From positions 756,776 to 820,775 of the forward strand of contig OZ253545.1 in NCBI GenBank assembly GCA_965262615.1: a DNA stretch of 64,000 bases, written 5' to 3'. Position 1 is the stretch's first letter. Each line of letters opens with the position of its first letter. This document shows positions 6,339 through 60,498 of this stretch, in pieces. Under the pieces are notes generated by a model that was given only the letters and a program-made list of their open reading frames with translations, was not told where the DNA came from and searched no databases. The translations under genes and the position numbers were made by a program. Source of the stretch: Alphaproteobacteria bacterium. GTDB taxonomy: Bacteria > Pseudomonadota > Alphaproteobacteria > GM7ARS4 > G965262615.

Positions 6339-6339
6339 T

Positions 6340-7272
6340 CTATTTGCGGGTGAGCTGGCGAAAAATATCTTCTAAATCTGATTGGCGGGTTGTGATGTCA
6401 CGAATGACAATGCCGCTCGCACGGCAGGCATCCAGCAGAGGCGCAACGGAGGTCTCCCGACTGGCATAGGGAATGCGGATGTGAAAATCATCGGTGCGCT
6501 CGCCTCCCAGTTGGTGCAGTTGCTGGCTGATATCGCTGATTTTTTGCTCGCTGGTGATGATGAGTTCTTTTTGGTCAATGCGCGCCAACAGGTTGGCTTT
6601 GGCATCACAGGCGATGACTTTGCCCTTGTCAATGATGGCGATGGTGTCGCAGAGCTCTTCGGCTTCCTCCAGATAGTGGGTGGTGAGAATGATGGTGGTG
6701 CCTTGACTGTTGAGCTCACGCACCCGCTCCCACAATTTTTGCCGCAATTCAATGTCCACGCCGGCGGTGGGTTCATCCAGCACGAGGATGGGCGGCTGAT
6801 GCACCATGGCTTTGGCAATCATCAGCCGCCGCCGCATTCCGCCTGACAGACTGCGCGGGTAGGAATCTGCCTTATCTCTCAATTCCAGCATCGTGAGCAA
6901 TTCATCGGTGTGGCGATTTTTTTTGGTGACACCATAGAGTCCCGCGTGCAGTTCCAAAATTTGACGGGGTGTGAAAAAGGGGTCTAGGTTCAATTCTTGT
7001 GGCACGATGCCGATGTGCATTTTGGCATTGCGATGATCCTCATCAATGTCAATATCCCAGATATGAATCTTGCCGCTGGTTTTGCGCACGAGTCCTGCCA
7101 GAATATTGATGAAGGTGGATTTGCCCGCCCCATTGGGACCCAGCAGAGCGAACAGGGAGCCGCGCGGGATGTCCAATTGCAATTGGTCAAGTGCCACAAA
7201 GGCGGATTTGCCCTTGCGATAGATTTTGCTCAACCGATGGGCACGCACCGCGATGTCTGGTGTTGGGGTCAT
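6340..7272 (-). CDS. ABC transporter ATP-binding protein (ABC-2/DrrA-like)
   Basis: Walker A GPNGAGKST, ABC signature LSGGMRRR, Walker B ILVLDEPT, and a C-terminal accessory domain. No permease gene follows it. Confidence 0.85.
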   Translation of the reverse strand: MTPTPDIAVRAHRLSKIYRKGKSAFVALDQLQLDIPRGSLFALLGPNGAGKSTFINILAGLVRKTSGKIHIWDIDIDEDHRNAKMHIGIVPQELNLDPFFTPRQILELHAGLYGVTKKNRHTDELLTMLELRDKADSYPRSLSGGMRRRLMIAKAMVHQPPILVLDEPTAGVDIELRQKLWERVRELNSQGTTIILTTHYLEEAEELCDTIAIIDKGKVIACDAKANLLARIDQKELIITSEQKISDISQQLHQLGGERTDDFHIRIPYASRETSVAPLLDACRASGIVIRDITTRQSDLEDIFRQLTRK

Positions 7273-7646
7273 AGTTCACGCAATTGGGAGCGAATGGCTT
7301 TGAGCTGCCCAAGGATGGTGCTCAGTTCGTGCGCAATATCGGGCGTGGGATTTGCGGTGGGCGGCTTTGTTTCTTCTTGTGGCGCGGCGGCTTTGGGGGC
7401 TGGCTGTGTGTTCTCCTCGGTGAGGATTTTTTGCGCGCCTTTGATGGTGTAGCCGTCTGTGTAGAGCAATTGTTTGATGCGCTGCAGCAGTTGCATCATG
7501 GCATCATCGTAGTAGCGTCTGTTGTCTCCTGGCTTGACGGGGACGAGCTGGTCAAATTGCGTCTCCCAGTAGCGCAGGACATGTTGCGGCAGTTCCAGTG
7601 TGGTGGCGGCTTCGCCGATGGTTTTGTAGTGTTTGTCGTCACTCAT
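7269..7646 (-). CDS. MerR-family transcriptional regulator
   Basis: N-terminal HTH (YKTIGEAATTLELPQHVLRYWE...RRYY). It overlaps the ihfA stop, the usual ihfA-merR arrangement in Alphaproteobacteria. Confidence 0.8.
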   Translation of the reverse strand: MSDDKHYKTIGEAATTLELPQHVLRYWETQFDQLVPVKPGDNRRYYDDAMMQLLQRIKQLLYTDGYTIKGAQKILTEENTQPAPKAAAPQEETKPPTANPTPDIAHELSTILGQLKAIRSQLREL

Positions 7647-7938
7647 GATGTGACCGTTTTTTCAATTGGCTGGAGGGGCGAAAACTGATGGTGCGCTTGG
7701 CGGGCACATAAATTTGCTCTCCCGTGGCGATACTGCGCGCCATGCGGGGTGCTTTGTGATAAATGGTGAAGCTGCCGAAATCACGAATTTTGACGCTGCG
7801 ATGATGCGCCAGCTCGGAAGTGATGATATCAAAGCAATCGCGCACCATGAGCTGACACAGATTTTTAGAAAGTCCCATGTGTTGATGCAACCGCTCGGCG
7901 ATGATGTCACGGGTGAGGGTGTTTTGCGTTGGCTTCAT
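7639..7938 (-). CDS. ihfA: integration host factor subunit alpha (HU/IHF family)
   Basis: 99 aa with IHF/HU-type sequence (LTRDIIAERL...VKIRDFGSF...R.ARS..TGE...V.AKR...FRPS). Confidence 0.8.
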   Translation of the reverse strand: MKPTQNTLTRDIIAERLHQHMGLSKNLCQLMVRDCFDIITSELAHHRSVKIRDFGSFTIYHKAPRMARSIATGEQIYVPAKRTISFRPSSQLKKRSHHE

Positions 7939-7956
7939 GATTGCATTGTGTGGCGG

Positions 7957-8754
7957 TTAGGAGGGAGTGTCAAGCGACTGGTGTTGCCAGCCGAGACTTT
8001 GTCCGCCATCCACACTGATGGTTTGTCCCGTGACGGCATCATTGTGCAACAAAAAAGAGACGGCGTGAGCCACAGTGGCAGGAGTGCCGCCGTGCCCAAG
8101 AGGCATACGCAGGCATTGTTGGTGAAAATCAGCGGCGGATTGTTGCTCATCAGGCAAAATGGGACCTGGCGCGACTTCATTGACTCGCACCTGTGGCGCA
8201 AATGCCAGTGCCATGCAACGAGTCATGCCGTGCAGCACATATTGACTCATGGCGTAGGTGGCAAAATGAGGCGTCATGTTAAACACGCGCTGGTCGCTGA
8301 TGTGAATGATACAGCCGCGCTGGGTCTCAGGCAGAGAGCGGACAAAATGCTGCGATAAAAAAAACACCGCCTTGGCATTGATAGCCATGGTCTCATCCCA
8401 CTGAGCGGGCGTTGCATCGCGGTAGGTGTCTGGCAAAAAGATTGACGCATTGTTAATCAGCGCACCGAGTTCTTGATGATGACGATGAGCTTCCTTCACG
8501 ATGGCATCGGTGTCATCGCGCACATCACCTATGATGACGCTGGCTTTGCGTCCTTTTTGTTCAATCTCGGCTTGCAAGGTGCGCGCCTCATCGGCGGAAC
8601 GGTGGGCATGAATGGCAATATCCCAGCCCTCGTTCGCCAGATGCAGAGCGATGGCGCGTCCAATACGGCGCGCACCACCCGTGATGAGCGCGATTTTCGG
8701 CACGGGCGGCAGAGTTGTATGTGTCATTCCATCAATATGAAGTGAATCACTCAT
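7957..8754 (-). CDS. SDR-family oxidoreductase (pteridine-reductase-like)
   Basis: Rossmann motif TGGARRIG, and a catalytic region YAMSQYVLHG (Y-x-x-x-K replaced by a Y..S..H context). The sub-family assignment is tentative. Confidence 0.7.
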   Translation of the reverse strand: MSDSLHIDGMTHTTLPPVPKIALITGGARRIGRAIALHLANEGWDIAIHAHRSADEARTLQAEIEQKGRKASVIIGDVRDDTDAIVKEAHRHHQELGALINNASIFLPDTYRDATPAQWDETMAINAKAVFFLSQHFVRSLPETQRGCIIHISDQRVFNMTPHFATYAMSQYVLHGMTRCMALAFAPQVRVNEVAPGPILPDEQQSAADFHQQCLRMPLGHGGTPATVAHAVSFLLHNDAVTGQTISVDGGQSLGWQHQSLDTPS

Positions 8755-12140: not shown

Positions 12141-12785
12141 TTATTTGATATATCCCTGGGCAATTAAAATAGTGACAGTAATGCCCCCAAACCACATCAA
12201 GATGTTTACTTTGCCTGTGAGAACTTGCATCTTTGTGTCCAAAGATTGAATTGATTTGATGACATCTGACATAGTCCAGACCTCTGAAGAAATGAGAGAC
12301 TCCACATCGGCTCCACCAAGCTCTGTTTTGCCTTGAAGGGGACCCGAATAGCGTTTTATGCTGGGTTTTGCCAATCTGTGTATTTCCAAAGTGAGAAAGT
12401 CTTCTTTGAAGGTAAAGGTGACGCGGCGGGAAGTTGGGTTGACAATCCTAGCAAACAATCTGCCGTGAAAACCTGGATCAATTTGTGCACCTGTTGTGGC
12501 ATAAATTCCTTTTCTGGCAAGACCAGAGGTCAGATCAAAACGAGCGGCGTGGCTCTGATTGATTGCGATTATTTCATGAGTGCCGATAATGGCAGAGTCA
12601 CCAGCCTCAACAATGATAAAACCTTTTTCAGAAATATCTTCTATTTTCTTTCCTTGAATGGTTGCTCCCTGTTTGCCCACGCGCAAATCGTAGGATGCGG
12701 GCTGCAATTGCCTGTCTTCATAATCAGAAATCTCAATCCCGCCATTATCAAGAGCTTCTTTAATCCCTTTGTCTGACAAAATCAT
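12141..12785 (-). CDS. dCTP-deaminase/dUTPase-fold protein with a C-terminal transmembrane anchor (paralog 1)
   Basis: MILSDKGI, QPASYDLRVG, TSGLARKGI and IDPGFHG resemble Dcd. The C-terminal hydrophobic stretch is ILMWFGGITVTILIAQGYI. The region is A+T-rich. Confidence 0.6.
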   Translation of the reverse strand: MILSDKGIKEALDNGGIEISDYEDRQLQPASYDLRVGKQGATIQGKKIEDISEKGFIIVEAGDSAIIGTHEIIAINQSHAARFDLTSGLARKGIYATTGAQIDPGFHGRLFARIVNPTSRRVTFTFKEDFLTLEIHRLAKPSIKRYSGPLQGKTELGGADVESLISSEVWTMSDVIKSIQSLDTKMQVLTGKVNILMWFGGITVTILIAQGYIK

Positions 12786-12965: not shown

Positions 12966-13610
12966 TTATCTGAAAGATGCCATAATTCCCATCAAAGCGA
13001 GCATGACAGGAAAAAGCCACATCAACATTTTTACTTGAATTGCGAGCTCTCGCACCTCTCTGCTGGAAGATTGAACCGATTTGATGATGTCTGGCACAGT
13101 CCATACCTCTGAAGAAAAGAAATGCTCCACATCACCTCCATCAAACTCCGTTTTGCCTTGATAGGGACCCGAATAAGGCTTTGTGCTGGGTTCTAACAAT
13201 TGGTGTATTTCCAAAGTGAGAAAGTCCTGTTTGAAGGTGAAGGTGACGGGATGAGGCATCAAATTGGTAATGCCAACAAACAATCTGCCGTGATACCCCG
13301 GGTCCACTTGTGTGCCTGTTGTGGCATAAATTCCTCTTCTGGCATGACCAGAGGTCAGACCAAAACGAGCCGCGTGACTCGCATCCATTCTGATGACCTC
13401 ATGAGTGCTGAGAAGGGCAGAGTCACCAGCCTCAACAACGATAAAACCTCGTTCAGAAATATCTTCTATTTTCTTCCCCTTAAGAGTTGCCACCTGCCTG
13501 CCAACGCGCAAATCGTAGGACGCCGGCTGCAACTGCTTGTCCTCATAACCAGAGATCTCAATCCCTTTATCCCTGAGAGCTTGTTTGATTCCGTTGTCCG
13601 ATAAAACCAT
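12966..13610 (-). CDS. dCTP-deaminase/dUTPase-fold protein with a C-terminal transmembrane anchor (paralog 2)
   Basis: Same length (214 aa) and motifs as paralog 1 (QPASYDLRVG, TSGHARRGI, VDPGYHG). The C-terminal hydrophobic stretch is LMWLFPVMLALMGIMASF. Confidence 0.6.
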   Translation of the reverse strand: MVLSDNGIKQALRDKGIEISGYEDKQLQPASYDLRVGRQVATLKGKKIEDISERGFIVVEAGDSALLSTHEVIRMDASHAARFGLTSGHARRGIYATTGTQVDPGYHGRLFVGITNLMPHPVTFTFKQDFLTLEIHQLLEPSTKPYSGPYQGKTEFDGGDVEHFFSSEVWTVPDIIKSVQSSSREVRELAIQVKMLMWLFPVMLALMGIMASFR

Positions 13611-13645: not shown

Positions 13646-13739
13646 ACTATACTATTTTTTGCTTGGTCTTACAAGAATGAACGGCAATTACTTTGAAGAC
13701 GGTTTGTCTTGCCGTTCAAAAAGAGGTTCGCTGACCGCA
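13646..13739 (-). promoter_or_regulatory. conserved upstream element of paralog 2: promoter (TTGTAA, 17-nt spacer, TATAGT) plus a 9-bp perfect inverted repeat GAACGGCAA/TTGCCGTTC
   Basis: Copy of 12821-12914. The inverted-repeat arms, read on the plus strand within 13678-13717, flank a 22-nt spacer. The element overlaps the 3' end of the 94-aa ORF. Confidence 0.45.
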
Positions 13740-14000
13740 AAATAGTTTTAGTTCATACAAAATTTTGTCAATGAGCAAATCACGCACCGCCAGATAGGGT
13801 GTGTAATAATCCACCGCAACAACGCGCTCCATATCAATATCGTCACAATCCCATTTTTGATCCACAACGATGGCAAACATGGATGACGCACTGATGTCTT
13901 CATCCAAAAAATCACTGACGCTGTCGCCATCAATGGTCTTGACATGCTGGCGCACCAAATTCAGCAAAGCGGTAAAATCTTGAGGGTTCAGCTCGCACAT
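13716..14000 (-). CDS. hypothetical small acidic protein (94 aa)
   Basis: The ATG lies 3 nt after the stop of the upstream 244-aa gene (TGA-gcc-ATG). The protein is strongly acidic (DGDSVSDFLDEDISA, DCDDIDME). I recognise no domain. Confidence 0.5.
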   Translation of the reverse strand: MCELNPQDFTALLNLVRQHVKTIDGDSVSDFLDEDISASSMFAIVVDQKWDCDDIDMERVVAVDYYTPYLAVRDLLIDKILYELKLFCGQRTSF

Positions 14001-14003
14001 GGC

Positions 14004-14738
14004 TCAATAGGTCTTGCGTTCTTCTTCCAGTTTTTTGGCATCGTAATGGGCGATGAAATTCTCGTAAGGAATAAAATCGTAGCGCGCGTAATGACTGGCA
14101 TAAGGCTCGCGTCCCATGACCTTGTCATATTTCGTCTTAAATTGGGGTGGTGCTAAAATATAGAATTTCGTTCTAAAGGGTTCTAATTGATAGAGGCGAG
14201 AAATGGCATTTTCCATCGTTCCAATGCTATCCACCACTTCATAGGCTCTTTGCGGGAATGGTTTATCTTTTTTGTCAAAAAAAATGACATCAATGTTTCT
14301 GGCTTCGGCAAGAATATCACCATAGGTAAATGGTGGGAGTTCCGACAAAGTGACAAGGTTTTTGAGAGGCACACCATTGAATTGAGCCGCTTTATCGGCG
14401 GTGAATGTGTGGTATTCGTCCAAGTTACCCAGCTCAATACACACGCCTTCCATGTGAGCGTGCATACGCTCGTCATCTTTTTTGATGGTGGCGAGGGGTG
14501 TTTCTTCGTATTGTCTGTCCTTGAGGGCAAAGATGCCGATGCCCAGCTTTTTGAACGCGGTGTCGGGGTTTTTCATATCTCTGTAAAGCACACCTCTGAG
14601 ACCCGCCTTCCAGTCATCTGACCGCTTGGCTTCAGGATAATAGCGTTCAATGGTGTCGTAGATAACTTCCCATGAGGCAACGCCATCATGGTCTTGTAGC
14701 AATCGGCGCATGGCTTCTATTTTTGTTGCGTCACTCAT
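14004..14738 (-). CDS. hypothetical protein: N-terminal winged-helix (Mrr-N/HARE-like) and C-terminal putative PD-(D/E)xK-like nuclease domain
   Basis: The N-terminus WEVIYDTIERYYP...WKAGLRGVLYRDMK...FKKLGIGIFAL resembles wHTH modules of restriction proteins. The C-terminal pattern is HAHMEGVCIELG ... NIDVIFFDKK ... RAYEVVDS. The functional call is tentative. Confidence 0.45.
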   Translation of the reverse strand: MSDATKIEAMRRLLQDHDGVASWEVIYDTIERYYPEAKRSDDWKAGLRGVLYRDMKNPDTAFKKLGIGIFALKDRQYEETPLATIKKDDERMHAHMEGVCIELGNLDEYHTFTADKAAQFNGVPLKNLVTLSELPPFTYGDILAEARNIDVIFFDKKDKPFPQRAYEVVDSIGTMENAISRLYQLEPFRTKFYILAPPQFKTKYDKVMGREPYASHYARYDFIPYENFIAHYDAKKLEEERKTY

Positions 14739-18486: not shown

Positions 18487-18891
18487 TTATTCTTTGTCAA
18501 ATGGTGGTTCTGTGTTTGCAAAATCAATCCTTTCTATGGATGGTATCCGAAATGTAAATGCTGTGCGTCCTTGAAATGAGCTCACGGCAAAATCTCCTTC
18601 GCCAATAATATCCATTCCTATGAGAATGTCGATCTCACCAGATAAACTTTCTGATTCACTCACGAGATGATTTTCAAACATCACACCATTGGGAAGAACG
18701 ATATTCACACGATATGCCGCAACTCTTTGAGGTTCTACCGTGCTGGGGGTTCTGACAAGAGCGACACCCACTTGCCGCAAGGCACATTTTTTTGCCACAT
18801 GCTTTGTGACTGATGTGTGTGTTGCTCCCGTATCCCAGATGGCTTTGAACTGAATTTTTTGTGCATGGGCATGGGCGTGTGCCACACCCAC
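18487..18891 (-). CDS. retropepsin-like (clan AA) aspartic protease
   Basis: Catalytic motif WDTGATHTSV, followed by ILIGMDII (a flap/GxD-like region). The apparent start is GTG, followed by a His-Ala repeat (HAHAHA). Confidence 0.65.
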   Translation of the reverse strand: MGVAHAHAHAQKIQFKAIWDTGATHTSVTKHVAKKCALRQVGVALVRTPSTVEPQRVAAYRVNIVLPNGVMFENHLVSESESLSGEIDILIGMDIIGEGDFAVSSFQGRTAFTFRIPSIERIDFANTEPPFDKE

Positions 18892-18942
18892 ACATCACTT
18901 GAGAGCTCACTCAAGCGAGTGTTTGCATCAATGGTAAAAGCT

Positions 18943-19215
18943 TTAATGGGCGGGTTTCTTTGCGCCATCAATAAAGGAAAACCGAGTTTGAAATGTTTGA
19001 TGGATGCTACGCGGATCCTCCGAACACTCCTGCACCAAGAATGTCCCCAGCTCATGCTTTTTGCTGGTGACCTTGATGGCTTCCTTCACATCATCATAAG
19101 CACCAATGACTTGTTGGTCTTTAATCACAACAAACTTGCCGTTGTATTTTTTGACCAACGCCTCGTGATTCTCCAAAAAATAATCAAAATCCCGATCCAA
19201 CTTCCTGTCCAACAT
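18943..19215 (-). CDS. small protein, DUF5678-like (putative partner of the aspartic protease)
   Basis: YNGKFVVIKDQQVIGAYDDVKEAIKV resembles the short DUF5678-type domain. It sits directly upstream of the protease on the same strand. Confidence 0.45.
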   Translation of the reverse strand: MLDRKLDRDFDYFLENHEALVKKYNGKFVVIKDQQVIGAYDDVKEAIKVTSKKHELGTFLVQECSEDPRSIHQTFQTRFSFIDGAKKPAH

Positions 19216-19400
19216 GATTAATTCCCTTCGTCAGTGTGTGTTGTTTGTTGCAGAGAGCGTCACCATTCCTCAAGATAAGATGAAAAATGAACCAGCACAA
19301 GAGAAAGGCGGGGGAATTCTTTGAAGATGCCATGGACTTTTTAATTGATTGCAGTTACAATCAAAATCTTATTTCGTTGGAAACATGAAGGAGGCTGGAT

Positions 19401-29344: not shown

Positions 29345-31048
29345 TTATGGCGTGGGTTTCAATAGGGCGATGGCTTCTTGGTTGTCTTTGAGTACTGCAT
29401 TTTGTTGCAAGACTTCATAGGGGGGGCAACCAAACCTGTCTTCGGCTTTAACATCCGCGCCCGCTTTTATGAGTTCTCCAATGGCATCAATGCTTATATT
29501 CATGAGTGCGGCATAATGAAGTGGTGTGTGACCATTATTGTTTCTGACATTAAGATCTGCTCCTGCTTTAGTGAGCTCTCTGATGAGATGAGCATTGTCA
29601 CTTAATGCAGCAGCGTGAAGTGGTGCGAAGCCATCTTCGCTTTTTGCATGAATGTCTGCTCCCGCCCTGATGAGTTCTTTGATGACATGAACATTGCCAC
29701 TATTTGAAACAACAACATGAAGTGGTGTGTGACCAATGTTGTTTTTGGCATTGACATCTGCCCCTGTGTTGATGAGTTCTTTGATGACATGGACATTGTC
29801 ATTGTGTTCAGCAGCAGTATGAAGAGGTGTAACATCATTGTTGGTTTTGGCATTGATATCTGCCCCTGCGTTGATGAGTTCTTTGAAGATATGAGCATTG
29901 TCATTGTTTTTAGCAGCTAGATGAAGTGGTGTGCCACCATCGTTGTTTTTAGCATGAATGTCTGCTCCTGCGTTGATGAGTTCCTTGATGACATGAGGAT
30001 TGTCATTTTTCCCAGCAGCATAATGAAGTGGTGTGAGATCATTGTTTTTGTTCTTGGCATTAACATCTGCTCCTGCTTTAATGAGTTCTTTGATGACATG
30101 AACATTGACATTGTTTGCAGCAGCATAATGAAGTGGTGTGAGATCATTGTTGTTGCTTTTGTCGTGAATATCTGCTCCTGCATTGATGAGTTCTTTGATG
30201 ACATGAACATTGACATTGTTTACAGCAGCAACATGAAGTGGTGTGTGACCATTGTTTTCTCTAGCACTAACATCTGCTCCCGCTTCAATGAGCTCCCTAA
30301 TAGCCTTAATGCTTGCACCATGTAATGTGGCACCATGAAGTGGTGTGCTACCATTGTTGTCTTTTGCATTGACATCTGCTCCTGCGTTGATGAGTTCTTT
30401 GATTATATGAGGATTGTCTTTTAAAGCAGCAACATGAAGTGGTGTAGAACCATTTTCGTTTTTGGCATTGACATCTGCTCCTGCGTTGATGAGTTCTTTT
30501 ATGAGTTCTTTGGTGACCTGAGGATTGTCATCGATGACATCAGGATTGTCATTGTATCCAGTAGTAGCATAATGAAGTGGAGTGAGACCATCGTTGCTTT
30601 TGGCATGGGTGTCTGCTCCCGCTTTTATGAGTTCTTTGAGGGCATAAGAATTGTTATTGAATGCGGCACAATGAAGTGGAGTGAGACCATCGTTGCTTTT
30701 GGCATGGATGTCTGCTCCCGCTTTTATGAGTTCCCCAATAACTTTAATGCTGATATTTGTGAACGCAGCACAATGAAGTGGTGTGCCGCCCCATTTGTCT
30801 TTGGCATGAATGTCTGCCCCTGCATTGATGAGTTTTTTGATGACATGAGGATTGCGATTGTTTGTAGCGGCACAATGAAGTGGTGTGCTATCATTGTTAC
30901 CTTCGGCATTGACATCAACCCCAGCTGCAATGAATTTTTGCAATTGCTCAAGCGTTAGTTCTTTCCAAAAATGGTCGTCTTGCCACTTACTCCATCCACC
31001 ATCAGCGATGTTTCGCAATTGAGCGAGTAGTTTTTCTTTGATGCCCAT
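29345..31048 (-). CDS. ankyrin-repeat protein (about 14 ANK repeats)
   Basis: I counted fourteen x-TPLH-x-A(A) cores, each followed by VIKELINAGADxxAK (33-aa periodicity). No signal peptide is evident. The sequence is A+T-richer than its flanks. Confidence 0.9.
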   Translation of the reverse strand: MGIKEKLLAQLRNIADGGWSKWQDDHFWKELTLEQLQKFIAAGVDVNAEGNNDSTPLHCAATNNRNPHVIKKLINAGADIHAKDKWGGTPLHCAAFTNISIKVIGELIKAGADIHAKSNDGLTPLHCAAFNNNSYALKELIKAGADTHAKSNDGLTPLHYATTGYNDNPDVIDDNPQVTKELIKELINAGADVNAKNENGSTPLHVAALKDNPHIIKELINAGADVNAKDNNGSTPLHGATLHGASIKAIRELIEAGADVSARENNGHTPLHVAAVNNVNVHVIKELINAGADIHDKSNNNDLTPLHYAAANNVNVHVIKELIKAGADVNAKNKNNDLTPLHYAAGKNDNPHVIKELINAGADIHAKNNDGGTPLHLAAKNNDNAHIFKELINAGADINAKTNNDVTPLHTAAEHNDNVHVIKELINTGADVNAKNNIGHTPLHVVVSNSGNVHVIKELIRAGADIHAKSEDGFAPLHAAALSDNAHLIRELTKAGADLNVRNNNGHTPLHYAALMNISIDAIGELIKAGADVKAEDRFGCPPYEVLQQNAVLKDNQEAIALLKPTP

Positions 31049-33505: not shown

Positions 33506-34648
33506 ATGAGTAGCAGAGCAACGGTAGAGAATATCAATCCAACAATTCTGCGGCAGTGTCGCGAGCAGATGGGACTGAGCTTGGGTGATGTCCGCAAAAA
33601 AATCGCTTCAATTGAAAAAATTGAAAACGGCGATAAGAAGCCCACCTTTAATCAAATTGATCAACTTGCTGAACTCTATCTTGTGCCAAGATGGGTTTTT
33701 ATTGCTGATAATTTGCCGCACGAATATCAATTTGATAAATCCATTCCCGCCTTTCGTCAATTTAAGGATTCCAATCATGATGTTTTTTCTGATTATAAGG
33801 TGCGCGCTCTGGTGACGCGTCTTGAGCGTATGCGTGAATTTGCCATTGAATTACGCCGTGATATGGATGAACCCATTGCTAGATTTAAACCACCCGCACA
33901 AGGGAGCACAATAGAACAGACGGCGGCGAATGTGCGTCGGTGGCTTGGTGTGACCGATGATGAACACCTTGAATTTGATGATTGGAGAGGCAAAATTGAA
34001 CAAAAAAATATTTTTGTTTTCAAAACGAATTCAATGAGCAATTGGTCAACAATAAGGCTTGATGAATTTTGTGGTTTTGCTTTGTATCATTCCGTATTCC
34101 CTGTTATTGTCATCAATGGTTCAGATTGGAAAAAAACACAGTCCTTTACGCTTTTTCATGAATTGGGTCATGTTATGAGGAAGCAGAATGCCATGGATGG
34201 ATGGAATTCCTATGGCGATGTAGAGCAATGGTGTAATGAATTGGCGGGTTGTGTTTTGATGCCAAGAAAATCTTTGGAAAAACAAGAATTATTGTCTTTT
34301 GATATAGACAATATAGAACAAATTGAAACGGCAGCTCGGAAATTCAAGGTGAGCATCTACGCTTTTTTGGTGAGGTTGCGTCAATTGGGTCAAATCAACA
34401 GGACGCAGTATTCCGATTTTGAAGAACAAATGAGGGAAATCCATGAGCAGGAAAAGCTTGAGAAAAAAAAGGGGGAAGTGCGAATTCCGCGCAGGATTCC
34501 TCATGAAGTGATTCAACAGTATGGCAGCATCTACTTGAAGACATTGTTCCAAGCTTATTACGAAAAAGAGATTGGCTTGCATAGATTGTGCCAATTGTTG
34601 AGTGTCAAGAGAGCTTCATACATCAAAGATATAGAGGAAAAATTATGA
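33506..34648 (+). CDS. XRE-type HTH + ImmA/IrrE (COG2856) zinc metallopeptidase domain protein
   Basis: N-terminal HTH (LRQCREQMGLSLGDVRKKI) and the HExxH motif FHELGHV. Confidence 0.8.
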   Translation: MSSRATVENINPTILRQCREQMGLSLGDVRKKIASIEKIENGDKKPTFNQIDQLAELYLVPRWVFIADNLPHEYQFDKSIPAFRQFKDSNHDVFSDYKVRALVTRLERMREFAIELRRDMDEPIARFKPPAQGSTIEQTAANVRRWLGVTDDEHLEFDDWRGKIEQKNIFVFKTNSMSNWSTIRLDEFCGFALYHSVFPVIVINGSDWKKTQSFTLFHELGHVMRKQNAMDGWNSYGDVEQWCNELAGCVLMPRKSLEKQELLSFDIDNIEQIETAARKFKVSIYAFLVRLRQLGQINRTQYSDFEEQMREIHEQEKLEKKKGEVRIPRRIPHEVIQQYGSIYLKTLFQAYYEKEIGLHRLCQLLSVKRASYIKDIEEKL

Positions 34649-35145
34649 GGATTTTTTCTGTAAGCAATAGAGTGCATTTTTGTTTGGATGCCAATGTTTT
34701 TATGACAGCTTGGGATGACACTCATCCAATTGGTATTTTTCAACCTTTGTGGCGTGAGATGGCAAACAAGAGAGACCGTATGATTTTGCTTAAACCTATT
34801 TATGATGAAATTGATCCCACAAGGAAAAAGAGTGAATTGAGAATGTGGTTAAAAGATAACAATTTTGTTCCCATACATATTGATGAGAAAAAAGTTCTTC
34901 AACAATTTCTAATTTTAGGAAGAAAATATGAGATAAGGGAACATCCCAAAGGAGTAGGGACGAATGATTTAGTACTAATCGCTTATGCTAAGACTCACGG
35001 CAAAACAGTCGTCACTCTTGAGGCAGTACAGGAGAAATTGCCCCAAAAAAAGTGGAAGTACAAAATTCCTGCTGTTTGCAAGCAAGAGCAAGTTCCTTGT
35101 ATCAATTTTATTGAGATGTTGCGGCGATTGAAAATTAAAGTTTAA
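34645..35145 (+). CDS. DUF4411 (PIN-like) protein, partner of the ImmA/XRE gene
   Basis: FCLDANVFM (N-terminal acidic PIN-like motif) and NDLVLIAYAK. Its ATG overlaps the upstream stop (ATGA). Confidence 0.65.
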   Translation: MRIFSVSNRVHFCLDANVFMTAWDDTHPIGIFQPLWREMANKRDRMILLKPIYDEIDPTRKKSELRMWLKDNNFVPIHIDEKKVLQQFLILGRKYEIREHPKGVGTNDLVLIAYAKTHGKTVVTLEAVQEKLPQKKWKYKIPAVCKQEQVPCINFIEMLRRLKIKV

Positions 35146-35168: not shown

Positions 35169-35244
35169 TGGCTCCGGCGGCAGGACTTGAACCTGCGACC
35201 CAGCGGTTAACAGCCGCTTGCTCTACCAACTGAGCTACACCGGA
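35169..35244 (-). tRNA. tRNA-Asn (anticodon GTT), CCA encoded
   Basis: Folded by hand. The acceptor stem is TCCGGTG/CGCCGGA, the D-arm TAGCTCAGTTGGTAGAGC, the anticodon loop CTGTTAA, and the T-arm GGTTCAAGTCC. It ends in CCA and is 76 nt long. Confidence 0.93.
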
Positions 35245-35304
35245 CCACCACGATGACTCTAGCAAAAAGGCGGGTCATCGCCAAGATGCTTGAGGCAAAA
35301 AAAG

Positions 35305-35375
35305 AGGCGCGAGTCGGAATCGAACCGGCCTAGACGGATTTGCAGTCCGCTGCATAACCACTCTGCCATCGCGCC
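35305..35375 (-). tRNA. tRNA-Cys (anticodon GCA), CCA not encoded
   Basis: GGCGCGATGGCAGAGTGGTTATGCAGCGGACTGCAAATCCGTCTAGGCCGGTTCGATTCCGACTCGCGCCT closely parallels E. coli tRNA-Cys. The anticodon loop is CTGCAAA. Confidence 0.92.
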
Positions 35376-52636: not shown

Positions 52637-52858
52637 TTAGCCTCTGCGAACGGGCTTGCCTTTAAGTGCCTGTTCATACTCCCATTTGGCGGCAGATGCT
52701 CGCGTGACCCTATGCCCCACTTGGAAAATATGACCTTTTTTGCCGTATGTTCGCTTATGCTCCTCTTCGCGTCGTTGAAGATCATTGGTGATGCCCGTAT
52801 GGATGATCCTGTTACCTTTTTTGAAATGGTACTTATAGATGCACTTATCCTGATACAT
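52637..52858 (-). CDS. mini GIY-YIG-like protein (73 aa), paralog A
   Basis: CIYKYHF..GNRIIHTGITNDLQRREEEH...KWEYEQ follows the GIY...YIG...R...H...E order. AAGGAG lies 7 nt before ATG 52858 (the tracked start 52876 is a TTG). The stop codon abuts the lptA stop. Confidence 0.55.
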   Translation of the reverse strand: MYQDKCIYKYHFKKGNRIIHTGITNDLQRREEEHKRTYGKKGHIFQVGHRVTRASAAKWEYEQALKGKPVRRG

Positions 52859-52893
52859 GACAAACTCCTTCAGCAAGATGGGGTGCTGATTCC

Positions 52894-52921
52894 AGTATAG
52901 TCTTTATTTGTGTTTTTTCAA
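52894..52921 (-). promoter_or_regulatory. near-consensus sigma70 promoter for paralog A (TTGAAA, 16-nt spacer, TATACT)
   Basis: On the minus strand, -35 is at 52916-52921 and -10 at 52894-52899. Confidence 0.5.
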
Positions 52922-52938
52922 TTGAGCAGGAATAATTA

Positions 52939-53151
52939 TTAGTGAATAGGCGTTCCTTGCCGTGCTTGTTCATGTTCCCATTTGACAGCATCGTATCGCG
53001 TCACTCTGTCCCCCACTCTCTCAACAGAACATTGGGAATTTTCCTGCTCATATTCTTTTTCAATGAGTTCAATATCTTTGGTGATGCCCGCATAGACAAT
53101 CTTGCCATCTACTTTCAAAAAGTAACGATAAATGCACCTGTCCTTATACAT
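52939..53151 (-). CDS. mini GIY-YIG-like protein (70 aa), paralog B (degenerate motifs)
   Basis: CIYRYFL..DGKIVYAGITKDIELIEKEY...KWEHEQ. The Arg and His positions of paralog A are replaced. GAGGGAG precedes ATG 53151. Confidence 0.5.
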   Translation of the reverse strand: MYKDRCIYRYFLKVDGKIVYAGITKDIELIEKEYEQENSQCSVERVGDRVTRYDAVKWEHEQARQGTPIH

Positions 53152-53186
53152 GACAAACTCCCTCAATAAAATGGACTGCTGATGCC

Positions 53187-53215
53187 AATATAGTCTTTAT
53201 TTGTGTTTTTTTCAA
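53187..53215 (-). promoter_or_regulatory. near-consensus sigma70 promoter for paralog B (TTGAAA, 17-nt spacer, TATATT)
   Basis: On the minus strand, -35 is at 53210-53215, abutting the stop codon of the 167-aa gene, and -10 is at 53187-53192. Confidence 0.5.
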
Positions 53216-53719
53216 TTATGAATTTGCATAATATGCCTGAATTTTTTTCAAAATGAGCAAAGTAATTTTAGCAAATTGATTGATATCAAAGGTGACTTCC
53301 CACTTCGCTTCTATTTTATTATTGGGATTTTCACCCGTCATGGTGACAGAAGACGCATAGTGGTAAGCATATGCGTGAATAACCTTATGACATAATGGCA
53401 AAAAATAAATTGTTTCTTTTTCTTTCTTACCTTCTTTGCTGGTCATCAGAATCGTGCCACATTTCTCGTCATCAAAAGTACTGAGAATTTTTTCTTTTTG
53501 CTTTCTTTTTTCCTCATTTTTGTCGGCAAGTGTTTGTTCGTTTAATTTACGCATAAAGACGGCGATGATGATGAGCGATTTGGTGGCTGTTTCATTCAAT
53601 GTGTCGTGATGGGAAGGTGTGTTCAATGACTGCATATTTTCTTTTGCCGCAAGAATGGCTTGCAAAAGATAAAGTTCCTTGTGCAATTCGGCAACATTGA
53701 AAAGGAATTGAGCATTCAT
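53216..53719 (-). CDS. hypothetical protein (167 aa), no recognisable domain
   Basis: An uninterrupted ORF in very A+T-rich DNA with a central Lys/Glu-rich segment (KNEEKRKQKEK). It is the first gene of the lptA|lptB islet. Confidence 0.45.
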   Translation of the reverse strand: MNAQFLFNVAELHKELYLLQAILAAKENMQSLNTPSHHDTLNETATKSLIIIAVFMRKLNEQTLADKNEEKRKQKEKILSTFDDEKCGTILMTSKEGKKEKETIYFLPLCHKVIHAYAYHYASSVTMTGENPNNKIEAKWEVTFDINQFAKITLLILKKIQAYYANS

Positions 53720-55930: not shown

Positions 55931-56887
55931 ATGATGGCAAAAGCAACGAAACTGGCTCTGGTGGGAGCGGGGCAGATTGGTGGCACACTGGCGCACTTGG
56001 CGGCGCAGGATGTGTTTGATGAGATTGCCCTTTATGACATCGCGGGGGATATGGCGCGCGGCAAGGCATTGGATTTGATGCAAGCCGGCGCGGTGGAAGG
56101 TTTTGAGGCACACATTCACGGCGGCGATGAGGATTCTTTGGTGCGTGATGCCGATGTGGTGATTGTCACTTCGGGCTTGCCGCGCAAACCCGGCATGAGC
56201 CGCGATGATTTGATTGAAAGCAATTGTGCCATCATCAAAAAAGTGGGGGCGTTGATTAAGACGCAATCCCCCAAGGCGTTTGTGATTGTGGTGACCAATC
56301 CGTTGGATGTGATGGTGTGGGTGATGCGGCAGGTGACGGGTTTTCCTCATGCACGAGTTGTGGGCATGGCGGGCGTTTTGGACTCGGCGCGTTTTGCTCA
56401 TTTTTTGAGCGCAGCTCTGGGCATCGCCAAGAATGATATTTCCTGCACGGTGCTAGGCGGGCATGGTGATTTGATGGTGCCCCTCATCGGTTATTCATCG
56501 GCTGGGGGTGTCTCGCTGGATGAATGGGTGCACAGCGGGCGGTTGCCACAGGATGTTTTGGATGGCATCATTGAACGCACGCGCGGCGGCGGCGGTGAGA
56601 TTGTCAAACTGCTGGGGACCGGTTCGGCGTTTTATGCGCCCGCAGCATCGGCGTTGCGCATGGCGCGAGCGTTTGTCCGAGACGAAAAACGCCTGCTCAC
56701 CGCGGCGGCATGGCTAAGAGATGCTTATGGCGAGCGCGATGTTTATGCCGGCGTTCCGGTTACAATTGGTGCGGGTGGCGTTGAGCAAATCGTCCAGCTG
56801 AGCCTCAGTGACACGGAGCAAGCGGCATTCAAACAATCGGTGGCGGCGGTGCGAGAATTAGTTGCCGTTGCCGAAAAAATGATATAA
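55931..56887 (+). CDS. mdh: malate dehydrogenase (LDH-like type)
   Basis: LVGAGQIGGTLA, GLPRKPGMSRDDL, VTNPLDVM, VLGGHGD. Confidence 0.95.
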   Translation: MMAKATKLALVGAGQIGGTLAHLAAQDVFDEIALYDIAGDMARGKALDLMQAGAVEGFEAHIHGGDEDSLVRDADVVIVTSGLPRKPGMSRDDLIESNCAIIKKVGALIKTQSPKAFVIVVTNPLDVMVWVMRQVTGFPHARVVGMAGVLDSARFAHFLSAALGIAKNDISCTVLGGHGDLMVPLIGYSSAGGVSLDEWVHSGRLPQDVLDGIIERTRGGGGEIVKLLGTGSAFYAPAASALRMARAFVRDEKRLLTAAAWLRDAYGERDVYAGVPVTIGAGGVEQIVQLSLSDTEQAAFKQSVAAVRELVAVAEKMI

Positions 56888-56899
56888 AAAGGATTCATC

Positions 56900-58063
56900 A
56901 TGACTGTTATTACCAGACCCGCTATTGAAGTAACGCAGGGCAGATACAAATTGTATCTGACATCCTTTACTGCCGAGCATTTTAACATGGCTGATTTTTA
57001 TGATGTTAAGAAATTAAATATTGACGCAGAAGGTGGCTATCAAAGAGGTTTGCAAGAAACGCGCGTCAAAAGGTTTGTTACAGACATTGTCCGAGCCTCT
57101 CACGATTCGAGGGCAGCTACCGAAGATAATAATTTCGGGTCGTGCTTTTATCCCACATCGGTTTTTTTGACAACAGAACATGATGTGAAATATGACGATG
57201 AGAAGAGAGAAATATTATTTGACACAAGCATTTGTCCTTTCAACATTGTGGATGGTCAGCATCGTGTGGAGGCTTTGCGGAAAGCCAGTAACGGGAATAC
57301 CGCTTTGGATGATTTTCCCATGCCCGTCACACTGGCAACCAACCTCAAGGAAGTGGAACAAATGCTTCAATTTTTGATTGTGAATAGCCAACAAAAGAAG
57401 GTTGAAAAAGGAGTGGAGCAACACATTTATGCGCGTTTATGCGATATGCAAACACTTAAACCAATGCCTTTTTTGCCAGGAGTGGTGGAAAGAGAAGTAG
57501 GAAAGGGCTTATATCGTGAGTGTTTTGACATTGTCAAATTTCTGAATAATGAAGAAACTTCTCCTTGGAAAGGAAAAATTGTCATGGCTGATGATGACCC
57601 TAAAAAGAAAGGTGTTAAACAAGCTGCGTTTGTGGGTAGTTTGAAAAGGTATATTTTTGCCCAAGGCAACCTTTTGCATGAGAAAAAGGATGATATTCGT
57701 TATGTGAAAAATTTTCTTTTGAACTACTGGATCGCTTTAACCGAATTCGCATCTCGGGACATTCGTATTGAGTCTGATTCAAATATTTTCAAAACAAATG
57801 GACTAAACTTTTTTCATGAAATTTCTAGCCTTTTTGCAGAAAAGTGCTTGAATAATGATGATGCGACAGTCCCCACAATTAGAGGATATTTTGAGGGGGT
57901 GAACGACTGTGCGTTGGAATTGGGAAATGAAAAGGTGGTAAAATTGATGGCATCTGCAAATTGGGCGAAAGGTGGTGAATTTGGTAAATTGAATCTAGGG
58001 GGCATTAGGGGCAAGGCTAGTGAATATAGTGCAATTTTTAAGAGTTGGGATTTAGGATTCTAG
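56900..58063 (+). CDS. DGQHR-domain protein (DndB-like, ParB/Srx-fold)
   Basis: YQRGLQETRVKRF ... NIVDGQHRVEALR ... EQMLQFLIVNSQQKKV. The ATG lies 12 nt after the mdh stop, preceded by AAGGA. The sequence is A+T-rich. Confidence 0.75.
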   Translation: MTVITRPAIEVTQGRYKLYLTSFTAEHFNMADFYDVKKLNIDAEGGYQRGLQETRVKRFVTDIVRASHDSRAATEDNNFGSCFYPTSVFLTTEHDVKYDDEKREILFDTSICPFNIVDGQHRVEALRKASNGNTALDDFPMPVTLATNLKEVEQMLQFLIVNSQQKKVEKGVEQHIYARLCDMQTLKPMPFLPGVVEREVGKGLYRECFDIVKFLNNEETSPWKGKIVMADDDPKKKGVKQAAFVGSLKRYIFAQGNLLHEKKDDIRYVKNFLLNYWIALTEFASRDIRIESDSNIFKTNGLNFFHEISSLFAEKCLNNDDATVPTIRGYFEGVNDCALELGNEKVVKLMASANWAKGGEFGKLNLGGIRGKASEYSAIFKSWDLGF

Positions 58064-58079
58064 GCAGTGAGCTCAACCT

Positions 58080-58421
58080 TTGAATATTGCTAATTTAACC
58101 CCTCAAGTTGAGCACAAAGTATCCTTTAGTGGCAGAGAGCTTTTGTCCGTTCCTAAAGAGGCGGGTTGCTATGTGCTGACCAATTTTAGTGGTGAGATTT
58201 TTTATATTGGTAGGGCTAAAGATTTGTGCAGACGCATGGCACAGCATTTAGAAAATCCAAAGATGAGACAGCGAATTACTGCAGGCAAGGCAACTCAATT
58301 CCACTATCGCTTGTGTGAGGTCAAAGAGCTTCCCTATCTTGAAAGAGGCTGGATGAACGAGTATAGAATGAATAATGGTGGCAGGTTGCCCCCTTTTAAT
58401 GAGGTGGATGCTGCCATCTAA
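58080..58421 (+). CDS. GIY-YIG nuclease domain protein (113 aa)
   Basis: GCYVLTN..GEIFYIGRAKDLCRRMAQH ... LERGWMNEY..N gives the full motif set. The only in-frame starts before the domain are TTG (58080 or 58143). Confidence 0.65.
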   Translation: MNIANLTPQVEHKVSFSGRELLSVPKEAGCYVLTNFSGEIFYIGRAKDLCRRMAQHLENPKMRQRITAGKATQFHYRLCEVKELPYLERGWMNEYRMNNGGRLPPFNEVDAAI

Positions 58422-58448
58422 GATTTTGCCATCTAATTGGAGGTTTTT

Positions 58449-59618
58449 ATGAATGTTCATGAATATCAGGCGAAACGCCTGCTTGGTCAGTTTGATGTTC
58501 CCACGCCTGTTGGGGATGTTGCTTACAACACGCATGAGGCGGAGCGCATTGCCAATTGGCTTGATGAGGATGTGATGGTGGTGAAGGCTCAGATTCATGC
58601 TGGGGGGCGTGGTTTGGGCGGTGGTGTCAAGGTGGTGAAATCGGTGGCGGATGTGGTGAAGTCTGCCGATGCCATGTTTGGCATGATGCTCAAAACTCCG
58701 CAAACGCCGCCTGAGGGCAAGAAAGTGCGGCGCGTTTATATTGAAAAGGGGGTTAATATAGACAAGGAGATTTATTTTTGCGTTGTGGTCAATAGGGCAA
58801 CGGGCGGGGTGGACATCATCGCCAGCAAGGAAGGCGGCATGGACATTGAGGAAATCGCTCAAAAGAAACCCAAGTCAATCATGAAGGTGTCGTTGCCTGC
58901 GGGGGCGCGTCTTGCCTCGCACCATGTGCGCCGTCTGTGCTACGGGCTGGGGCTCGGCGGACGCTTGGGACGCAAGGCACAAAAAACCATGCTGAATATT
59001 TGGCGCGCCTATGACAATCTGGATGCCTCCATGCTGGAGATCAATCCACTGGTCACCACCAAAGAGGAGGAGGTCTTTGCTCTGGACTGCAAGGCGGACT
59101 TTGACGACAATGCTCTGTTTCGTCAACGGCGGGTGGAAGAAATGCGTGATGATGACGAAATGGACCCCCTTGAGCTGGAAGCCGCGCGTCACAATCTCAA
59201 CTATGTGAAGCTGAACGGCAGCATTGGGCTCATGGTCAATGGCGCGGGACTCTCAATGGCAACGATGGACATCATTGAGAGCATGGGGGGCAAGGCGGCA
59301 AACTTCATGGATGTGGCAGGAGCGGCAACCTCGGAGCGTGTCGCCGCCGCATTCAAACTGATTTATCGCGATGCCGATGTCAAAGGTATTCTCATCAACA
59401 TTTTTGGCGGCATGATGCGCTGCAACTCCATCGCCGAAGGCTTGGTCGCCGCCGCCGGCGAGGTGGGGCTGGAGAAACCGCTGGTGGTGCGTCTGGAGGG
59501 AACAAATGTGGATTTGGGACGCAAAATCCTCAAGGACTCGCCCTATCCCATAGAACCAGTCGCCACCATGTACGAGGCGGCGGAGAAAATCGTGAACGCC
59601 GTCAAAAAAGGAGGCTGA
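58449..59618 (+). CDS. sucC: succinate--CoA ligase (ADP-forming) subunit beta
   Basis: [24 protein letters not shown], and NIFGGMMRC-type motifs. GGAGG precedes ATG 58449. Confidence 0.95.
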
Positions 59619-59619
59619 C

Positions 59620-60498
59620 ATGGCTATTTTACTGGACAAAAACACCAAGATTATTTGTCAGGGCTTCACGGGAGCGCAAGGGACATTTCACTCACAGCAG
59701 GCGTTGGATTATGGAACGAATTTGGTGGGCGGCGTGACGCCCGACAAAGGCGGCAGCAAACACTTGGGACTGCCCGTCTTCAACACGGTGGAAGAGGCGG
59801 TGGAGAAAACAGGATGCACCGCAACGGGCGTTTTTGTGCCGCCACCCTTTGCCGCCGATGCCATCTTGGAGGCGGTGGAGGCTGAGCTGGAACTGGTGGT
59901 GTGCATCACCGATGGTGTGCCGGTCAGCGATATGCAACGAGTCAAAAGTGCCCTTGTGGGCAAAAAAACCCGCCTCGTGGGACCCAATTGTCCGGGCGTT
60001 TTGACTCCTGATGTGGGCAAAATCGGCATCATACCAGGGCATATTTGTCAAAAAGGACGGGTGGGAGTGATTTCTCGCTCCGGCACATTGTCTTATGAGG
60101 CGGCGGTGCAGACCAGTCAGTCGGGGCTGGGGCAATCCACCATCATTGGCATTGGCGGTGACCCTGTCAATGGCACGAACTATGTGGATGCCTTTGAACT
60201 CTTCATGCAGGATGATGAAACCGATGCCATCATCATCATTGGCGAGATTGGCGGTGTGCCAGAGATCAATGTGGCGCATTATATCAAGGACTTGGGCAAA
60301 AAATCCAAACCTGTGGCGGCGTTTGTCGCAGGGGCTGCCGCACCGCCAGGAAGACGATTGGGACACGCAGGGGCAATCGTCTCGTCTGACGATGAAACCG
60401 CTCAAGCCAAAAAAGAAGCTTTGCGTTCCGCAGGCGCAGTGGTGGCTGATATCATCACCGATATCGGCAAAGCCATGCGCCAAGCGATGAACTCATAA
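59620..60498 (+). CDS. sucD: succinate--CoA ligase subunit alpha
   Basis: [23 protein letters not shown], and GHAGAI (phospho-His loop). Confidence 0.95.

Follow-up and report, generated by a model that had tools for sequence, protein, structure and literature searches.

The 64,000-nt window studied here (contig OZ253545.1 of assembly GCA_965262615.1, from an alphaproteobacterium) contains a two-gene cassette between mdh and sucC, inside the mdh-sucCD operon (Table 1). Gene 1 encodes a DGQHR-domain protein and gene 2 a small GIY-YIG nuclease. A preliminary description of the window gave coordinates for both open reading frames (ORFs) and spacers of 12, 16 and 27 nt, located after mdh, between the two genes and ahead of sucC; all were recomputed and are identical. 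The start of sucC is an ATG at position 58449, set by homology with the outgroup L011, and there is a GGAGG ribosome-binding site at positions 58439–58443. The G+C content (GC) is approximately 0.55–0.57 in the flanks and drops to 0.40 and 0.43 in genes 1 and 2, respectively, which confirms that both genes are A+T-rich, as had been noted.

The preliminary description found no promoter, terminator, integrase or flanking repeat belonging to the cassette. Most of this holds. Promoter-like and terminator-like matches in the cassette are not commoner than in shuffled sequence, and no integrase gene is present within or adjoining it. The point on repeats has to be amended: the last 15 nt of gene 2, with the stop codon, have a near-duplicate at the right junction that was missed, and this is the only junction repeat found. 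A lack of dnd, ssp, dpd and methyltransferase partners in the window had also been reported. None is present among the ten ORFs from low-GC islets that were scanned; the ORFs at positions 13716–14000, 18487–19221 and 52939–53166 were left out and the remaining window genes lay outside the scan, so that the statement applies to these ten.

Gene 1 matches the DGQHR family model TIGR03187 with 80.8 bits (cutoff 58.85) over residues 8–303, and Pfam DndB (PF14072) with 38.2 bits (cutoff 29.1). Gene 2 matches Pfam GIY-YIG (PF01541) with 32.4 bits (cutoff 22.6). The hidden Markov models (HMMs) that had been proposed as a check are thus all exceeded. The DGQHR motif and the motif of the FxxxN region had been noted in the preliminary description and prove to be invariant in an alignment of 17 homologues: VDGQHR at residues 117–122 (D118–R122), the pair Q48-R49, and F158...N162 (FxxxN). 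A QR pair, an FxxxN motif and a near-invariant DGQHR pentapeptide are the defining features of the family (PMC4619093). The AlphaFold2 model of gene 1 has a predicted local distance difference test score (pLDDT) of 88.5 and a predicted template modelling score of 0.84. It displays a predicted N-terminal beta/ParB-like core and a C-terminal half that is modeled as all helical. A Foldseek comparison of the model with the PDB gives the ParB-like protein PadC as the sole match (E = 0.04, probability 0.97), and the sequence profile of gene 1 compared with PDB chains gives nothing meaningful, so that no relative of solved structure sheds light on the mechanism. Structure prediction, which had also been proposed, therefore bears out a generic ParB-like N-terminal fold only.

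Gene 2 is a complete GIY-YIG catalytic domain, as had been claimed, with all catalytic residues present. Residues Y31, Y42, G44, R52, H56, E88 and N107 are invariant across 79 partner sequences. Of the solved structures, 1yd6, an N-terminal domain of UvrC, comes closest (E = 1e-7), followed by Slx1, T4 EndoII and I-TevI. The protein consists of the catalytic domain alone and has no NUMOD or other DNA-binding module or extension; the homing-endonuclease model TIGR01453 gives 21.8 bits, with a cutoff of 56.05. Translation can begin only at the TTG at position 58080, as the preliminary description stated, and an in-frame TGA at positions 58068–58070 blocks any earlier start. This TTG is conserved in four divergent alleles and aligns with the nearly invariant Met start of the 79 homologues. 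It adds 23 residues that contain conserved positions: L6 and P25 are nearly invariant and F16 is invariant.

The pair is present in many other genomes. A word-indexed protein search returns only 18 close DGQHR homologues and 4 close GIY-YIG homologues. A DGQHR profile search of 1.84 billion cluster representatives (clusters at 50% identity) gives 182 clusters with E <= 1e-30, rising to 1205 with E <= 1e-10. When one genome per GTDB species was scanned with a pattern, at least 80 loci were obtained; the 80 listed, with DGQHR identities of 25–43%, are the locus set used below, and the species of the window is not among them. They span at least 15 phyla and one archaeon. The carriers are Acidobacteriota, Nitrospirota, Chloroflexota, Planctomycetota, Bacteroidota, Alpha-, Beta- and Gammaproteobacteria, Desulfobacterota, Bdellovibrionota, Actinobacteriota, Firmicutes, Candidate phyla radiation lineages, Elusimicrobiota, Melainabacteria, Verrucomicrobiota, Leptospira and the one archaeon. 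Co-occurrence of the two genes is thus widespread across phyla and not particular to the mdh-sucC site.

A GIY-YIG-subfamily ORF, detected with an HMM built for this purpose, lies directly downstream of the DGQHR gene and on the same strand in 72 of the 80 listed loci. The eight exceptions are a contig that ends 68 nt past the gene, a truncated DGQHR, a rearranged DGQHR, and five distant DGQHR proteins (25–28% identity). The more distant DGQHR proteins at L087–L092, with the same range of identity, have no GIY-YIG partner. Such distant proteins without a partner imply that the GIY-YIG-linked DGQHR proteins represent a discrete subfamily. An overlap of exactly 4 nt is seen in 39 of the 58 pairs called; the pair in the window has a 16-nt spacer instead. 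The distance matrices of the DGQHR and GIY-YIG proteins are correlated (Mantel r = 0.82, p = 0.001), and fused forms exist (see below), so the proposed co-occurrence analysis supports a true pairing. The GC of the cassette is below that of its flanks in 93% of the 72 loci, by a mean of 8.9 points.

Neighbouring genes were sampled at about 50 loci (150 neighbour proteins, the top 25 families). Among the four nearest genes no third gene family is conserved, and no dnd, dpd or ssp genes are found. Besides housekeeping genes, the neighbours include type I restriction-modification genes, methyltransferases, DarTG, mads, PD-Lambda-2 and PIN genes. An example is a Sinorhizobium terangae plasmid, where genes annotated in RefSeq as 'DGQHR domain-containing protein' and 'GIY-YIG nuclease family protein' overlap by 4 nt and are located between a PD-(D/E)XK nuclease and UvrD helicases. 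In a termite-gut bacterium the pair is found in yet another genomic context. The phage databases give little. There is one weak match (22.6% identity) in the phage genomes of INPHARED, IMG/VR has only six loci, four of which have the pair, and PHROGs gives a generic ParB-like match only. A phage-borne origin was rejected on these results. On sequence grounds, the loci together establish a conserved, horizontally mobile and self-sufficient two-gene nuclease module.

Three loci, L058, L073 and L076, were at first taken for fusions and were rejected as such. They have an N-terminally extended DGQHR protein and a separate GIY-YIG gene with a 4-nt overlap, in agreement with the RefSeq annotation of the Sinorhizobium plasmid. 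A DGQHR N-terminal extension of about 100–210 aa (476–583 aa in total) is seen in L058, L061, L069, L073 and L093 (Rhizobiaceae, Microvirga, Mesorhizobium) and in P0143–P0153.

Close relatives of the window bacterium show what has happened at the mdh-sucC junction. The junction is recovered in eight metagenomic assemblies (L001–L007 and L101), and a ninth contig without the upstream flank, L102, holds a further allele, which gives 8–9 lineage assemblies in all. The cassette is located at exactly this junction in all eight. In the outgroup L011 (mdh 69% identical; gene order mdh-sucC-sucD-ACT gene) the junction is empty, with a spacer of 12 nt. Beyond the clade, the closest mdh sequences are 69% identical and then at most 63%, from Azospirillum, Stellaceae or other Alphaproteobacteria. 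The empty junction of L011 agrees with the earlier statement that mdh and sucC are normally adjacent, and is what had been proposed as a check; it implies that the cassette is an insertion. The description of the locus as an inserted islet is therefore correct relative to L011. It does not hold in the sense of a sporadic recent insertion, as the cassette is present in every close relative with the junction recovered. The alleles at the site form one clade with respect to 76 other loci (97 of 100 neighbour-joining bootstraps, with the conserved N-terminus excluded), and every one of them has a GC of 0.38–0.41, compared with 0.53–0.54 in the flanks.

The alleles are not conserved with the site but vary to an extreme degree. 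Overall DGQHR identity among them is 39–95%. Between the window and L002–L005, protein identity is 96–100% in the flanks, 39–67% in DGQHR and 41–88% in GIY-YIG. Nucleotide identity is 94–100% in the flanks and falls to 45–60% in the cassette for the most divergent alleles (L004 and L005). The synonymous divergence (dS) is 0.04–0.15 in the flanks and from 0.54 to more than 1.6 in the cassette, i.e., four to more than ten times higher. With cassette dS so far above flank dS, the alleles are far older than the split of their hosts and not merely faster evolving. L001 shows the reverse pattern: flank dS is 0.19–0.33, while DGQHR has 95% protein identity and a dS of 0.076, and GIY-YIG 85% and a dS of 0.23. 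This reversal implies that the DGQHR gene was the centre of a recent transfer from one lineage to another. The ratio of nonsynonymous to synonymous divergence (dN/dS) of the cassette is 0.2–0.4 (0.3–0.4 in gene 1, 0.2–0.36 in gene 2), which argues that both genes are under purifying selection and functional. Among the alleles the ParB-like core of gene 1 (residues 76–180) is the most conserved part, and variability is greatest in the loop at residues 61–75 and over the final ~70 residues.

Three forms of the cassette occupy the site. The split form is found in the window, L001, L002, L003 and L102. A fused form, a single protein of 524/526 aa, is present at the same site in L004 and L005, which are two independent assemblies. 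In L006, L007 and L101 the nuclease is deleted and DGQHR is intact. No nuclease-only allele is found among the relatives' alleles. The split, fused and nuclease-deleted forms co-occur in single metagenomes. In the AlphaFold2 model of the fused allele P0007 the DGQHR part is good, and the GIY-YIG part (residues 413–524) has a pLDDT below 50 with an alignment only two sequences deep. Traces of earlier nucleases are also present. The three DGQHR-only loci have a degenerate GIY-YIG 3' remnant of about 70 nt ahead of sucC, and L003 has the same remnant downstream of an intact pair. The 15-nt duplicate in the window is at the same position as these remnants; it is also found in L002 and is absent from L001. 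The remnants and the duplicate look like scars of successive cassette replacements. Comparison of the junctions establishes a single insertion into the mdh-sucCD operon of this lineage, with long-lived, recombining and hyperdivergent alleles.

The DGQHR ORF is conserved in nucleotide sequence over its first ~95 nt, and in the junction alignment allele divergence starts within the first ~100 nt. This 5' segment has a 21-nt imperfect palindrome (positions 56929–56971, 81% complementary) that is kept in all eight alleles. Its interpretation as an RNA or recombination signal was rejected: RNAalifold models a hairpin, but there are no compensatory base changes. Over codons 1–32 the dS relative to the fused allele is 1.25, which implies that conservation of the 5' end is mostly at the protein level.

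Some alleles have additional sequence. About 560 bp of extra sequence are found between the GIY-YIG stop codon and sucC in L003 (positions 7545–8100) and L102 (positions 1510–1955), and end in a degenerate GIY-YIG 3' remnant; they may be a relic of the original integration. In L003, positions 7735–7827 represent a 93-nt tRNA-like sequence on the minus strand that scores 32.6 bits with the Rfam tRNA model, just over the gathering score, and is not called by ARAGORN. A more distant alphaproteobacterium, L012 (GCA_964786265.1, mdh 63% identical), has two unrelated ORFs of 149 and 299 aa with no Pfam match between mdh and sucC (positions 6099–7502). From this case the mdh-sucC junction may be a recurrent insertion point.

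The pair can be compared with known systems in which a ParB-like nucleoside triphosphatase (NTPase) is coupled to a nuclease. In GmrS/GmrD, GmrSD, BrxU and SspE, a DUF262 ParB-like NTPase is combined with an HNH/DUF1524 nuclease in type IV restriction. The likeness to GmrSD lies in a ParB/Srx domain with D-G-Q-x-R (DGQQR in GmrSD, DGQHR here), QR and FxxxN motifs that is coupled to a nuclease, in the occurrence of both as two polypeptides or as one fused protein (PMC4619093), in the lack of a cognate modification gene, and in the location in variable genomic regions. It differs in that the nuclease of the pair is of the GIY-YIG type and not His-Me finger/HNH, and the ParB-like domain is DGQHR/DndB and not DUF262. 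The DUF262-HNH gene in the window likewise joins a ParB-like domain and a nuclease, but it is a single fused protein of the canonical type, with homology to the pair at the superfamily level only.

DndB, the regulator of dnd phosphorothioation, and DpdB, the ATPase of the dpd 7-deazaguanine system, belong to the same DGQHR family (TIGR03187, PF14072) and have the motif conserved. Gene 1 differs from both. It scores 38.9 bits with TIGR04172 (cutoff 450) and no dnd partners are found; it scores 43 bits with NF041060 (cutoff 300) and 35 bits with PADLOC DpdB, and no dpd neighbours are found. On the nuclease side, SNIPE/PD-lambda-1 (transmembrane segment-DUF4041-GIY-YIG) has a GIY-YIG effector in which the catalytic Glu is required (bioRxiv 10.1101/2025.11.03.685801). 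However, SNIPE, Uzume and PDC-S14 are single proteins with other accessory domains and no DGQHR/ParB-like partner, and the PADLOC matches of gene 2 to UzuA and PDC-S14 are marginal (E ~1e-3). Homing endonucleases such as I-TevI and T4 Seg share the catalytic fold and the insertion between conserved genes without an integrase, but the pair has no DNA-binding extension, is not phage-borne, and has hyperdivergent alleles. In searchable full-text literature, DGQHR/DndB/ParB and GIY-YIG are mentioned separately and never as a pair, and RefSeq has no more than generic names for the two genes. Together with the lack of a PADLOC 2.0.0 model, this agrees with the earlier statement that the pairing is not a described system. 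A ParB-like NTPase with a nuclease is a kind already known; the combination of DGQHR and GIY-YIG is new, and is not a new category. The most unusual aspect is the population pattern inside a core operon of the tricarboxylic acid (TCA) cycle.

The reading we favour, with a probability of roughly 0.55, is that the pair is a GmrSD-like restriction or defence nuclease under diversifying selection. As an NTP-dependent DNA-binding subunit, the DGQHR protein would serve for sensing or licensing, and the small UvrC-type GIY-YIG endonuclease would be the effector. Together, possibly as a physical complex, they would most likely act against phages or plasmids in a restriction-like manner, by the same logic as GmrS/GmrD, BrxU and SspE, which likewise join a ParB-like NTPase to a nuclease. 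No modification partner accompanies the pair, so discrimination of self from non-self, and with it the nuclease target, would rest on a feature of foreign DNA (e.g., modified bases, by type IV logic), or the nuclease would have to be tightly licensed. The cassette entered the mdh-sucC junction once in this alphaproteobacterial lineage. Since no promoter or terminator can be recognised within it, transcription of the cassette presumably reads through together with mdh-sucCD. Old divergent alleles would then move between lineages by homologous recombination via the conserved flanks, and a host-parasite arms race with diversifying or frequency-dependent selection would be expected to give such an allele pattern.

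Precedent and context are consistent with this proposal. In SNIPE, a defence nuclease that has been characterised experimentally, a GIY-YIG domain acts as the catalytic effector (bioRxiv 10.1101/2025.11.03.685801), and defence loci often contain fusions of ParB-like COG1479/DUF262 domains to nucleases (PMC3632139, PMC4619093). Other A+T-rich islets of the window code for a DUF262-HNH enzyme, dCTP-deaminase-like proteins and an ImmA/IrrE + DUF4411 pair. The preliminary description saw in the two genes the logic of a two-gene defence system; the domain logic, the population pattern and the genomic context support that logic, and the function itself we infer from them. A more specific form of the proposal adds that the pair is a widespread stand-alone immune nuclease, in which a DndB-type ParB/Srx NTPase licenses a UvrC-type nuclease, maintained inside mdh-sucCD as a trans-species balanced polymorphism of split, fused and nuclease-less alleles. 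This form stands at a little under even odds. If it is true, placement in the operon would provide constitutive expression and the core genes would serve as recombination arms for allele swaps.

Several observations weigh against a GmrSD-like defence nuclease. The Foldseek comparison of the gene 1 model with the PDB gives no GmrSD, BrxU or SspE structure, and Pfam GmrSD_N (PF03235) scores 14.4 bits on gene 1, under the cutoff of 33.2. The analogy to GmrSD is for these reasons one of architecture and not of homology beyond the superfamily. PADLOC-DB 2.0.0 has no fitting model, and gene 1 has only the weak match to DpdB. The link to recognised defence genes is modest, and many loci, including that of the window, are situated among housekeeping genes. 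In the DGQHR-only alleles the dN/dS of DGQHR is 0.54, so the putative sensor may act without this nuclease; these alleles are either decaying or encode a ParB-like protein with an activity of its own.

Four other explanations were considered. A toxin-antitoxin or addiction module, possibly acting in abortive infection, is unlikely. Here GIY-YIG would be a toxin that the upstream DGQHR protein neutralises or regulates, such that loss is costly. The order with the regulator first and the 4-nt overlap are typical of type II toxin-antitoxin operons, the nuclease has a weak TTG start in this lineage, PIN toxins and other toxin-antitoxin-like genes are among the neighbours, and the existence of DGQHR-only but not nuclease-only alleles fits a nuclease that is toxic without its partner. 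However, two alleles are fused, which is unusual for a toxin and antitoxin and normal for a sensor and effector. The DGQHR protein, with 387 aa and invariant enzyme-like ParB/Srx motifs, is not a small labile antitoxin, and addiction alone does not account for the extreme allelic diversity. A selfish homing-type element has a still smaller probability. In that case a free-standing GIY-YIG nuclease with DNA binding by DGQHR would cut empty or rival junctions and be copied by repair, with no benefit to the host. The precise position between two conserved genes, with very short spacers and neither an integrase nor terminal repeats, is as expected for such an element, as are the movement between lineages with diverged flanks (L001 and the window) and the many loci elsewhere that are also amid housekeeping genes. 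The remnants of old cassettes and the nuclease-deleted forms are reminiscent of a homing cycle in its degeneration phase, and GIY-YIG is the classic homing-endonuclease fold, with weak matches to I-TevI and a group I intron endonuclease. Yet gene 2 is a catalytic domain only, is below the TIGR01453 cutoff and has UvrC as its nearest relative. Close relatives with the junction recovered show no polymorphism of occupied and empty sites. Homing copies should be near-identical, but the alleles differ with dS > 1.6 and both genes are under purifying selection. In other phyla the pair is found in unrelated genomic contexts and not at one conserved target, and cultured phages, whose genomes commonly contain free-standing GIY-YIG homing genes, essentially lack it.

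It is very unlikely that the pair is a DNA-modification or regulatory component like DndB or DpdB with its partners elsewhere in the genome. The best named models are indeed DpdB (43 bits) and DGQHR_dnd_1 (38.9 bits), and the Pfam family is DndB, but with equivalog cutoffs at 300 and 450 bits these scores fall far short. The neighbourhoods sampled and the ten low-GC window ORFs contain no dnd, dpd or ssp genes, and the sole constant partner is a nuclease and not a modification enzyme. A domesticated, lineage-specific housekeeping role, in DNA repair or in regulation of the TCA operon, is barely credible. Such a role would fit a cassette that is present in every close relative with the junction recovered, is co-oriented inside a core operon and has a UvrC-like nuclease. 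It is incompatible with alleles that are 39–67% identical where the hosts are 96–100% identical elsewhere, and the foreign composition, the patchy distribution across phyla and the nearest outgroup without a cassette also argue against it.

Should the GmrSD-like reading be confirmed, the catalogue of defence systems would gain a compact new system of two genes, with ~180 clusters that match the DGQHR profile at E <= 1e-30, in at least 15 phyla. The principle of a ParB-like NTPase plus a nuclease would then extend to the DGQHR/DndB branch and to GIY-YIG chemistry, and the pair would be a tractable experimental handle on what DGQHR domains sense, which is relevant to DndB and DpdB as well. The locus itself represents an unusually clean natural case in which, at one fixed site of a core metabolic operon, alleles are hyperdiverse and cassettes are exchanged, and is useful for the study of immune-gene polymorphism that is kept without mobile-element machinery.

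Table 1. Features of the mdh-sucC locus and of other islets in the window
Feature	Positions	Strand	Basis and remarks
mdh (malate dehydrogenase), core gene upstream	55931–56887	+	Pfam Ldh_1_N, Ldh_1_C; protein 96–97% identical to L002–L005
Left-junction spacer, 12 nt	56888–56899	+	Sequence
Gene 1, DGQHR-domain (DndB-type ParB/Srx-like) protein, 387 aa; putative NTP-dependent DNA sensor/licensing subunit	56900–58063	+	
Spacer between genes 1 and 2, 16 nt	58064–58079	+	Sequence
Gene 2, catalytic-only GIY-YIG nuclease (UvrC/URI type), 113 aa, TTG start; putative effector	58080–58421	+	
15-nt near-duplicate of the final 15 nt of gene 2, including stop codon	58422–58436	+	Repeat pair spans 58407–58436
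sucC (succinyl-CoA ligase beta subunit), core gene downstream	58449–59618	+	Pfam ATP-grasp_2, Ligase_CoA; protein 99.7% identical to L002–L005
sucD, next operon gene	59620–60498	+	
Two paralogous dCTP-deaminase-like proteins, 214 aa each	12141–12785, 12966–13610	-	Pfam DCD 67–69 bits; islet GC 0.43–0.47
DUF262-HNH protein, 452 aa	19401–20759	+	GmrSD_N 67.9 bits, C-terminal HNH 47.9 bits, PADLOC NsnA 115 bits; GC 0.38
Ankyrin-repeat protein, 567 aa, 14 repeats	29345–31048	-	PADLOC PDC-M72A 260 bits; GC 0.43
Helix-turn-helix + Peptidase_M78 (ImmA/IrrE, RmrA-like) protein and DUF4411/PIN-like protein	33506–35145	+	Islet GC 0.36–0.40
A+T-rich islet between LptD_N-like gene and lptB	52637–53719	-	

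The remaining islets of the window are listed in the lower part of Table 1. The two dCTP-deaminase-like genes may represent a nucleotide-depletion defence, and PADLOC gives no match for them. Their islet has two further ORFs, at positions 13716–14000 and 14004–14738, the latter without a Pfam or PADLOC match. The ImmA/IrrE islet directly adjoins two tRNA genes on the minus strand (positions 35172–35375). The ankyrin-repeat protein may hint at a host-associated lifestyle.

The islet ahead of lptB contains two paralogous ORFs of 75–79 aa, in which a GIY-YIG-like motif occurs in miniature (CIY.Y...GIT.D..R..EH), as well as an ORF of 167 aa without a family match. The copy number of the small ORF varies, with one to three copies in L002–L006.

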